Part shown: positions 50,621 to 50,694 of the stretch, in pieces | Position numbering within the stretch: the stretch's first letter is position 1 | Layout: the number at the start of each line of letters is the position of its first letter | From: an uncultured Actinomycetota bacterium | GTDB lineage: Bacteria; Actinomycetota; Actinomycetes; Streptosporangiales; Streptosporangiaceae | Assembly: GCA_963719765.1 (NCBI GenBank) | Contig: CAVRCW010000004.1 | Coordinates: forward strand, 52,920 to 116,919 | Reading direction: 5' to 3' | Length of the DNA: 64,000 bases | Program-made: the position numbers and the translations under genes | The notes under the pieces: model-generated | What the model saw: the letters and a program-made list of their open reading frames with translations, nothing else | Database searches by the model: none | What the model was told of the DNA's origin: nothing

Positions 50621-50694
50621 TGGCGCCCCCGGCGGGAATTGAACCCGCTCTGTCCGTTTTAGAGGCGGATGCCCTGCCGTCGGGCTCCAGGGGC
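50621..50694 (-). tRNA. tRNA with CUA at the anticodon position (amber-suppressor-like; amino-acid identity undetermined), CCA encoded
   Basis: GCCCCUG-GA-GCCC-GACGGCA-GGGC-A-UCCGC-CUCUAAA-ACGGA-CAGA-GCGGG-UUCAAUU-CCCGC-CGGGGGC-G-CCA. All four arms pair. U33 and A37 flank C34-U35-A36 (plus-strand TAG at 50660-50662). Atypical features: G8, C31/A39 mismatch, 7-nt D loop. Confidence 0.6.

Follow-up and report, generated by a model that had tools for sequence, protein, structure and literature searches.

A conserved amber-anticodon tRNA of Actinomycetota is linked to a PTH2-like gene with an in-frame TAG at codon 5

The stretch of DNA analyzed here, 64,000 nucleotides from an uncultured actinobacterium of the Streptosporangiaceae (henceforth termed the window), encodes a single tRNA, and the anticodon of this tRNA is CUA, the complement of the amber stop codon UAG. 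We find that the tRNA gene is the last element of a cassette of ca. 850 bp, encoded entirely on the minus strand, which consists of a gene related to the peptidyl-tRNA hydrolase 2 (PTH2) family, an open reading frame (ORF) of 99 amino acids, a hairpin and the tRNA, in this order. The PTH2-like gene contains a TAG at its fifth codon that is conserved across loci. The data make it probable that the tRNA descends from tRNA-Lys(CUU) and works as an amber suppressor, being the third part of a self-contained cassette and reading the UAG at codon 5. An initial annotation of the window had described the tRNA alone; the target codon and the cassette, which constitute the main finding, both lay outside it. 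Our analysis is purely comparative. The elements of the cassette in the window are the following.

50621..50694, minus strand: tRNA with the anticodon CUA (amber-reading), called by ARAGORN and Rfam RF00005
50697..50715, minus strand: small GC hairpin GGCGGC-UGAAGAU-GCCGCU, from the spacer fold, 2 nt 5' of the tRNA
50746..50794, minus strand: large GC-rich hairpin, from the spacer fold, directly after the stop of the middle ORF
50795..51094, minus strand: middle ORF, 99 amino acids, helical, with its ATG at 51094-51092
51100..51456, minus strand: PTH2-like gene, re-annotated, with its ATG at 51456, TAG as codon 5 and the stop TGA at 51102-51100
51442..51444, minus strand: programmed in-frame TAG, codon 5, followed by G, conserved across loci
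51445..51456, minus strand: leader codons ATG CCG CAT CGC (M-P-H-R), kept as a peptide
51463..51468, minus strand: -10-like hexamer TACCAT, 6 nt 5' of the ATG and without a Shine-Dalgarno motif, a putative leaderless promoter

An amber-anticodon tRNA and its linkage to a PTH2-like gene

A search of the window with ARAGORN gave one tRNA, which has the anticodon CTA and occupies 50621-50694 of the minus strand. The Rfam model RF00005 matches 50624-50694 of the same strand over its entire length (model positions 1-71 of 71), with 52.1 bits against a gathering score of 29 and E = 2.7e-8. Both programs thus agree with the complete cloverleaf of the initial annotation, and neither gives another anticodon. 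The anatomy described there (G8, C31/A39, short D loop, G73, CCA) likewise matches the sequence. The acceptor stem has 7 bp including U6.G67, position 8 is a G, and a D stem of 4 bp closes the short loop GACGGCA; the anticodon stem spans five positions with a C31/A39 mismatch next to the loop CUCUAAA, the variable loop has 4 nt, the T arm reads GCGGG-UUCAAUU-CCCGC, and G73 is followed by an encoded CCA. ARAGORN labels the molecule "tRNA-Pyl". Because the program also names a UUA tRNA elsewhere "tRNA-Stop", we take this label to follow from the anticodon.

Conservation of CUA together with compensatory changes in orthologues, which the initial annotation had named as a mark of a genuine call, was indeed found. 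CTA is kept in all 43 distinct orthologous sequences (63 loci), none of which carries an ordinary anticodon, and CUA is conserved across more than 100 loci overall, which rules out a one-off point mutation of a normal tRNA. Among 42 distinct family members, changes on both sides occur at 7 of the 20 stem pairs (3:70, 6:67, 11:24, 12:23, 30:40, 31:39 and 50:64) and broken pairs are rare. The anticodon loop is CUCUAAA in 41 of the 42 aligned distinct sequences and CCCUAAA in the other. Conserved anticodon and compensatory changes indicate that this molecule is under selection as a CUA tRNA. Across the family, the first pair is G1-C72 or G1.U72, position 8 is a purine (G or A) with a few cases of C or U, the D loop has 7 nt and retains GG, 14:21 sometimes forms a fifth D-stem pair, the variable loop has 4-6 nt, and the T loop is the canonical UUCRAYU. 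Position 73 is mostly A, with the window in a G73 minority. The C31.A39 mismatch is confined to the window (1 of 42 sequences). In L002, from a related species, the tRNA differs from that of the window at two positions: A39->G restores pairing at 31:39, and through G67->A the U.G pair becomes U-A.

The ancestry of the tRNA was assessed by searching the family consensus against annotated phage genomes, such that the comparison set consisted of phage tRNAs. The best annotated matches are actinophage tRNA-Lys(CTT) genes (E = 8e-6 and 4e-3), followed by Trp and Met tRNAs at E = 0.2-0.6. In the alignment, the anticodon stem GCCGC/GCGGC is identical between the cassette tRNA and actinophage tRNA-Lys(CTT), and the loop CUCUAAA differs from the CUCUUAA of tRNA-Lys solely by U36->A. 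The acceptor stem also resembles that of tRNA-Lys(CUU), and A73, the majority state of the family, is common to both. Relative to tRNA-Lys(CUU), the cassette tRNA has a D loop that is 2 nt shorter, and U8 is replaced. By these similarities, tRNA(CUA) looks like a derivative of tRNA-Lys(CUU) that differs at U36A. A Trp-, Gln- or Glu-derived origin, which had been proposed from G73, finds no support in a family that mostly carries A73 and has tRNA-Lys(CUU) as its nearest annotated relatives.

A protein-based scan of metagenome contigs yielded 196 relatives of the PTH2-like protein, and 80 loci were kept. In 61 of these 80 loci, a CTA tRNA follows on the same strand, 88-636 nt after the stop of the PTH2-like gene. 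Eighteen of the 19 loci lacking the tRNA have at most 448 nt of downstream sequence or are cut by the contig end; the nineteenth, L076, carries a 5' tRNA half that is broken after the anticodon loop by a transposase-like gene. The converse scan, in which a degenerate tRNA pattern was run against one genome per species, retrieved 51 genomes, all of them Actinomycetota. Carriers include Actinomadura, Nocardia, Asanoa, Dactylosporangium, Actinocrispum, Actinophytocola and Trebonia as well as metagenome-assembled genomes of Streptosporangiaceae, Micromonosporaceae and Acidimicrobiales. Among those that can be cultured are Nocardia tenerifensis NBRC 101015, N. altamirensis NBRC 108246, Actinomadura scrupuli KCTC 19488, A. 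barringtoniae GKU 128 and Dactylosporangium darangshiense JCM 17441. A gene with the leader and its TAG lies upstream of the tRNA in 39 of the 51, and most of the others are truncated where the retrieved stretch ends or visibly decayed. The surroundings of the cassette vary among loci: ORF clustering of the flanks of 112 loci revealed no recurring constant neighbor, synthetase or pyl gene, nor do integrase genes, phage genes or known toxin domains consistently border the cassette.

The in-frame TAG and the proteins of the cassette

In public annotation, the PTH2-like gene of the window is represented only by an 85-amino-acid piece that begins at GTG 51357. Translation further upstream reads ATG CCG CAT CGC TAG GGC, i.e., M-P-H-R-stop-G-S-T-P-G-R-L-Y-L-V-T-R, and every substitution between the window and L002 on the 5' side of the annotated GTG is synonymous in the frame that runs through the TAG to the ATG. 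To characterize the stop, we searched for the nearest upstream in-frame stop codon of any kind, i.e., with no bias towards TAG, in 80 sequences comprising 78 metagenomic loci, the window and L002, caught by the leader motif. The stop is TAG in 80 of 80 sequences and is preceded by M-[P/S/T/A]-H-[R/...]. Two further loci that the motif missed, L028 and L052, show the arrangement M-P-H-[P/R]-stop at the level of the translation only. Among the species-level genomes, the upstream in-frame stop is TAG in 39 of 40, the lone TGA belonging to the decayed locus L109.

Conservation around the TAG has the character of a coding sequence. In 96-99 distinct leaders, the T, A and G of the stop never vary, and 90% of loci have G at +4, whereas natural TAG stops are mostly followed by C. 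Codons 2-4 vary synonymously (CCG/CCA/CCT; CAT/CAC; CGT/CGC/CGG, also AGG) with M-P-H-R maintained; of 99 distinct leaders, 50 read exactly MPHR, and the 22 other variants are mostly one position away from it. The linker between the TAG and the first strand of the protein has nine different lengths in the 99 distinct sequences, all of them in frame. It contains no ATG, GTG or TTG in 95 of the 99, with an in-frame GTG or TTG in the remaining four, among them L143 and L144. A conserved in-frame stop, coding signal on both sides of it and the lack of an alternative start in 95 of 99 sequences place the TAG inside a translated frame. The terminal stop of the PTH2-like gene is itself never TAG (TGA in 59 cases, TAA in two).

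The gene starts with ATG or GTG throughout the family. In 96 distinct upstream regions, TAnnnT is enriched at -12..-7 (or -13..-8) and G at -15/-14, with no motif resembling a Shine-Dalgarno sequence. In actinobacterial leaderless mRNAs, a -10-like box 6-7 nt before the start codon and the absence of a Shine-Dalgarno motif are the usual layout. Since the -10-like box of the PTH2-like gene sits at just this distance, with no Shine-Dalgarno motif, its mRNA is probably leaderless.

Relatives outside this clade have plain N-termini such as MERLYVVTR or MKRLYVV; MPHR-TAG is therefore a clade-specific addition. Two database proteins with uninterrupted N-termini, P0125 and P0132, were considered as exceptions and proved to be gene-caller artefacts starting at an internal GTG: their DNA contains in-frame ATG GCG CAT CGC TAG and ATG CCG CAT TAC TAG upstream, and the tRNA downstream. 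In the protein database, the PTH2-like gene forms 27 clusters with ragged V, L or M starts and its obligate neighbor more than 1000. The few PTH2-like clusters are explained by gene callers that halt at the TAG or start at internal codons.

Assignment to the PTH2 family depends on the restored N-terminus. The first strand and the QAxQAAHA helix, both needed for the match, lie between the TAG and the annotated start. With them, the window protein reaches 15.9 bits against Pfam PTH2 (PF01981), below the cut-off of 23 (E = 0.016), and 22 of 25 family members match at E <= 0.01, the best at 1e-7. A family profile searched against the PDB has Pth2/Bit1 structures as its top hits (1wn2, 1q7s, 2zv3 and 1rzw; 1wn2 with E = 0.0013), and the aligned region in each case starts with the LVTRADL strand, shortly behind the TAG. 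Opposite the Asp of the archaeal RDAG motif, the family has the acidic residue of its EPD motif. At the Lys of the archaeal G-K motif, the window protein has Thr, and the family has Thr or Gln. An AF2 model of the protein is poor (pLDDT 66), and its Foldseek matches are not significant. The wider PTH2-like family constitutes a distant bacterial branch with 1065 representative clusters at E <= 1e-10. Among relatives outside the cassette (P0279, P0281, P0292 and P0316), some have an N-terminal domain of ~100 amino acids or a long C-terminal extension, and the wider family also matches the phage protein family phrog_1866, to which no function is assigned (E = 1.5e-7).

The middle ORF is the more conserved of the two proteins, with a mean column identity of 81% against 58% for the PTH2-like protein. 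It is present at 67-89% identity in all loci with room for it but one, the orphan-tRNA locus L102. In the window, its ATG lies 5 nt after the stop of the PTH2-like gene, behind a GGGAGGTGA Shine-Dalgarno motif. At 44 of 61 distinct junctions, this ATG and the stop of the preceding gene are merged into ATGA, with a GGAGGTGA Shine-Dalgarno motif before it. Such a stop/start overlap is the classic arrangement for translational coupling. The 1007 clusters of the middle ORF include none with a Pfam domain or a name, the NCBIfam search gave no hit, and a fold search with the AF2 model of the middle protein, an all-helical helical hairpin with pLDDT 85, found no structural neighbor.

Between the middle ORF and the tRNA, the spacer of the window folds with a minimum free energy of -58.2 kcal/mol (z = -4.2 against shuffled sequences). 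The large hairpin directly after the ORF is kept in L002, L003 and one clade of other loci and might act as a terminator without a U-tract or as a processing element. A strong GC hairpin 2-14 nt before the tRNA is more general, being present in almost all of 77 distinct folded spacers. In one example, it reads GGTGAGCGGC-AGGCGCC-GCCGCTCACC, and variants keep the pairing. This hairpin is usually preceded by a GGCAYSATG motif, and in one clade the order is hairpin, CCACCATG and tRNA. Judged by position and pairing, it could be a leader of the tRNA precursor, a terminator lacking a U-tract combined with a tRNA promoter, or a protein-binding site. A scan of the cassette for consensus promoters and terminators, with models that represent E. 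coli-type sites, found nothing, and there is no T-run.

Outside this gene, TAG behaves as an ordinary stop. It ends 15 of 43 confident genes in the window (35%), in keeping with the initial annotation, which had pointed out that many genes there end in TAG, and it accounts for 28% of stops in the flanking genes of carrier loci. These figures speak against a genome-wide reassignment of UAG, and because TAG is a common terminator, release factor 1 (RF1) must be present. Within the window, no second in-frame TAG was found as a readthrough target. Two TAG-ended genes, for an S9 peptidase (within 41905-45096, plus strand) and a class I/II aminotransferase (within 30372-32045, minus strand), were rejected as candidates, as the next in-frame ORFs encode separate complete domains, DUF899 and a cupin. 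The DUF899 gene is absent from the syntenic loci L002-L006.

Genomic surroundings and decay of the cassette

In the window, the neighborhood of the cassette comprises genes for the S9 peptidase, NDK, an XRE/HTH_31 regulator, an ECF-type sigma factor, an epimerase and DinB, a chromosomal neighborhood whose gene order recurs in contigs of related actinobacteria. L002 and L003, which derive from a related species (a neighboring gene is 81% identical), have the tRNA with its CUA anticodon. It is absent from the syntenic slot in the more distant loci L004-L008; L006 and L008 have the HTH gene directly next to the sigma gene. The tRNA therefore belongs to an insert. Where the cassette is missing, the slot can hold other genes, namely an ORF of ~100-120 amino acids and a 296-amino-acid GNAT acetyltransferase (L004:7212-8407; L005:7133-8391), and it looks like a hotspot for small accessory modules. 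A phage or plasmid origin of the window locus was considered and dropped, since blastn gave no match to phage or plasmid collections. An independently assembled contig from a read archive carries a locus identical to that of the window.

Both immediate neighbors have features of their own. Immediately upstream of the cassette is the ECF-type sigma factor gene (51489-52514, minus strand), which ends in TAG and whose product has a SnoaL-like domain at its C-terminus; an ECF-type sigma factor occurs near the cassette in ~15 of 112 loci. The XRE/HTH_31 gene (49395-50620, plus strand) converges on the tRNA and has at least three frameshifts relative to homologues of 404 amino acids, passing out of, into and again out of frame. 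In the original frame, the gene would terminate at a TAG directly adjoining the 3' end of the tRNA. As the read-archive contig gives the same 376-amino-acid product, the frameshifts are unlikely to be assembly errors, and the XRE gene is probably a true pseudogene.

The CUA tRNA gene is also a target of mobile DNA. In the interrupted locus L076 (3300-4300), the 5' half is followed by the transposase-like gene; L138 and L140 contain the 3' half only, from the anticodon loop on, similar to att-site remnants; and in ~5 loci a serine recombinase gene lies just 3' of the tRNA (in L010 at about +88 nt). Decay takes several forms. Both ORFs are pseudogenised in L100, and L109 and L129 have internal deletions. 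L123 and L133 (Asanoa iriomotensis) no longer have the core of the PTH2-like gene, but their middle ORF is intact, and the MPH[RY]-TAG leader persists, as does the tRNA. L102 is an orphan tRNA.

Proposed mechanism, alternatives and relation to known systems

From these comparisons, we infer a mechanism in which translation would begin at the AUG or GUG at the very 5' end of an mRNA that reads AUG-CCN-CAY-CGN-UAG-GGN, and ribosomes would reach the UAG, codon 5, after fMet-Pro-His-Arg has been synthesized. Two outcomes would then compete. RF1 would terminate at the UAG, in which case only a tetrapeptide is wasted, or charged tRNA(CUA) would decode it, most probably as Lys, and the PTH2-like protein would be made. 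Through the ATGA overlap, synthesis of the middle protein would be coupled to UAG readthrough. The output of the cassette would be set by the ratio of charged suppressor to RF1, and TAG elsewhere would stay an ordinary stop. Such a system fits the specialised or regulated role that the initial annotation had deduced from the cost of suppression where TAG is a common, real stop; the non-ribosomal role offered there as another option is disfavored by the conserved in-frame TAG two ORFs upstream of the tRNA.

The residue that would be inserted at UAG is most likely Lys. E. coli LysRS depends chiefly on U35 and CUA tRNAs are readily charged; position 36 is also among the anticodon bases that the E. 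coli enzyme reads. The programmed TAG has one sense variant among the loci found, AAG in L044, which is the codon read by the parental CUU anticodon. This variant, the relatedness to tRNA-Lys(CUU) and the reliance of LysRS on U35 together point to Lys.

What the cassette achieves physiologically can be addressed more tentatively. We favor a feedback of the prfB type. The PTH2-like protein, by its family a hydrolase of the ester bond in peptidyl- or aminoacyl-tRNA, would be synthesized only at high levels of charged suppressor, which it would in turn reduce or whose by-products it would clear, thereby capping genome-wide readthrough. This loop is speculative, because the G-K Lys is not conserved and because the enzyme core is lost in L123 and L133. 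Since these loci keep the leader with its TAG, the middle ORF and the tRNA, the middle protein looks like the more durable output. It is possible, if doubtful, that the cassette acts more broadly as an autonomous suppression homeostat or termination sensor, whose proteins act back on charged suppressor, peptidyl-tRNA or the ribosome and so provide actinobacteria with the standard code, culturable Nocardia and Actinomadura included, with tunable proteome-wide UAG readthrough or rescue from RF1 failure.

Several observations weigh against programmed readthrough and the roles derived from it. The window protein scores below the PTH2 cut-off and has Thr in place of the G-K Lys, such that hydrolase activity is not assured, and a structural model of pLDDT 66 gives the PTH2 assignment no help. 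The feedback idea draws only on family chemistry and the analogy to prfB. In L102, L123 and L133, the tRNA occurs without an intact PTH2-like gene; the hydrolase therefore cannot be the whole point, and further roles of the tRNA or the middle ORF are conceivable. U36A removes a base read by LysRS, and charging may be weak or performed by another enzyme. The oddities of the tRNA, namely position 8 that is rarely U, the short D loop and the C31.A39 mismatch of the window, could each lower its function.

Four other explanations were weighed against suppression at codon 5. MPHR-UAG might be a free-standing leader ORF that terminates, with the PTH2-like protein made by reinitiation or non-canonical initiation and the tRNA serving some other purpose, such as low-level suppression or a non-translational job. 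Short regulatory upstream ORFs are common, a conserved M-P-H-R would suit an effect of the nascent peptide on termination, four of the 99 linkers do contain an in-frame GTG or TTG, and L102 has the tRNA on its own. For such a leader, however, any stop would do, yet TAG is found in every intact locus as compared with ~30% of ordinary stops; the frame would not need to be kept, yet it is kept over nine linker lengths; and start codons are missing from 95 of 99 linkers, with a Shine-Dalgarno motif absent as well. The matching anticodon moreover lies 88-636 nt after the stop of the gene in 61 of the 62 loci with enough sequence. We thus regard a free leader ORF as quite improbable. The same tRNA could, alternatively, belong to a pyrrolysine-type or other non-canonical amino acid system with a dedicated charging enzyme, as the ARAGORN label "tRNA-Pyl" would have it. 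An in-gene UAG, a CUA tRNA encoded in cis and a short D loop are also encountered in pyrrolysine systems. In tRNA-Pyl, typically, a single nucleotide separates acceptor and D stems, the anticodon stem has 6 bp, the variable loop is only 3 nt long, and the D loop lacks G18G19. The cassette tRNA shares only the short D loop with it, having 2 nt between the acceptor and D stems, an anticodon stem of 5 bp (26 and 44 unpaired), a variable loop of 4-6 nt, G18G19 and a canonical T loop, and it is a close derivative of tRNA-Lys(CUU). No pylS, pylBCD or synthetase gene recurs in the 112 flanks, and position 5 falls in a variable N-terminal tail that is absent from relatives, an odd site for a special catalytic residue. 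A system of this kind is therefore highly improbable. tRNA-Sec and allo-tRNAs (8/5, 9/4, 8/4 and 9/3 arms, long variable arm) are excluded by the 7/5 arms and the variable loop of 4-6 nt, and the Rfam tRNA-Sec model gave no match to the window tRNA at its gathering threshold.

The two remaining explanations concern what the cassette is for and whether the copy in the window still works. A toxin-antitoxin or anti-phage (abortive-infection) module, in which one of the small proteins is toxic to translation and the gate formed by UAG and tRNA times its synthesis, would account for a small, self-contained unit of two ~100-amino-acid proteins and an RNA, for its accessory and patchy distribution (present in the window and L002, missing from the same slot in L004-L008), and for its varied neighborhoods and frequent decay. 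The match of the wider PTH2-like family to phrog_1866 and the domain fusions of some relatives would also suit it, and in Acidobacteria, irregular suppressor-type tRNAs have been reported adjoining toxin-antitoxin genes (PMC5389517). Neither protein matches a PADLOC model at E <= 1, though, and the cassette has no integrase, phage gene or known toxin domain as a consistent neighbor. We consider a defense role unlikely; it would bear on physiology only and is compatible with readthrough, which it does not replace. Even if the family works, the window copy could be a decaying or non-functional relic, in view of a C31.A39 mismatch found in 1 of 42 sequences, the adjacent XRE gene frameshifted in three places relative to its 404-amino-acid homologues, and decayed cassettes elsewhere. 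We give this little credence: the two ORFs, the leader, the TAG, the -10-like box and the tRNA of the window are all intact, and the identical locus was assembled independently in the read-archive contig. Besides, tRNAs often tolerate one mismatch where the anticodon stem meets its loop.

Programmed readthrough of a stop codon by a dedicated tRNA has partial counterparts in several known systems, and the cassette is not a member of the prfB, bldA, Pyl or phage-suppressor systems. The bldA tRNA-Leu(UAA) of Streptomyces resembles it as a single non-essential actinobacterial tRNA that gates genes containing its codon, TTA. In bldA, the codon is a rare sense codon and the regulon is dispersed, whereas here it is a stop that ends ~30% of genes, and the tRNA and its only known target are linked. 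Pyrrolysine systems (pylT, pylS and pylBCD, with UAG in methylamine methyltransferase genes) similarly encode a tRNA(CUA) for specific UAGs while UAG remains a stop. The flanks of the cassette, in contrast, have no synthetase or biosynthesis genes, its tRNA is Lys-derived with a canonical shape, and its hosts are aerobic soil Actinomycetota. Laboratory amber suppressors that insert Lys also place CUA on a Lys-like body, and many CUA constructs in E. coli are lysylated; those are engineered or mutant, whereas the cassette tRNA is a natural family with an altered core (U8 lost, D loop 2 nt shorter) and a conserved target. Pth2/Bit1 (PF01981) proteins share profile similarity with the PTH2-like protein over the whole domain, including the aligned acidic residue of EPD. 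The cassette protein differs in its place on a distant bacterial branch, in the replacement of the G-K Lys by Thr or Gln and, for the window protein, in a score below the Pfam cut-off.

Phage suppressor tRNAs likewise permit translation of genes with in-frame stops, but serve many recoded genes; the cassette lies in the chromosome, with no linkage to phage genes, and has one target codon. Three matches of the tRNA pattern on viral contigs were rejected as unrelated suppressors in tRNA arrays or as tRNAs without a cassette. Two of the contigs involved, L089 (IMGVR_UViG_3300047548_001122) and L090, are large viral contigs whose tRNA arrays include a CUA suppressor, in L089 together with a UUA (ochre) tRNA. 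The viral-contig suppressors are identical to the cassette tRNA at 42-46 of 72 positions, have the canonical U8 and D loop, and are unrelated to it beyond the search pattern. In prfB, an early in-frame stop pits the release factor against alternative decoding (bioRxiv 10.1101/2024.09.24.614795). As in this gene for RF2, the early stop of the cassette would serve as a sensor of competition at that codon. prfB has a UGA that is bypassed by a +1 frameshift with the help of an internal Shine-Dalgarno motif and yields a release factor, whereas the cassette has a UAG at codon 5, keeps the frame, encodes a suppressor tRNA of its own and yields a PTH2-like and a helical protein. There is a real chance that the physiological logic of the cassette is new. 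In the open-access literature searched, neither the cassette nor its TAG was found to be described; a "tRNA amber gene" annotated in Geodermatophilaceae is mentioned in passing (PMC9686282).

Natural, stably maintained nonsense suppressors are rare in bacteria that still use the respective stop codon, and are usually unexplained. The suppressor described here comes with its own invariant target codon, and an odd annotation ("tRNA-Pyl" or "amber tRNA") thereby becomes a defined recoding system that is genetically testable in strains from culture collections. A systematic annotation error hides the PTH2-like genes, which form 27 clusters against more than 1000 for their neighbor. If readthrough is confirmed, the cassette would unite features of prfB, bldA and Pyl in an unreported combination and provide a case study of how bacteria tolerate a suppressor while ~30% of their genes end in TAG. 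Its tRNA(CUA) may also serve as a natural scaffold for genetic-code expansion in actinomycetes.

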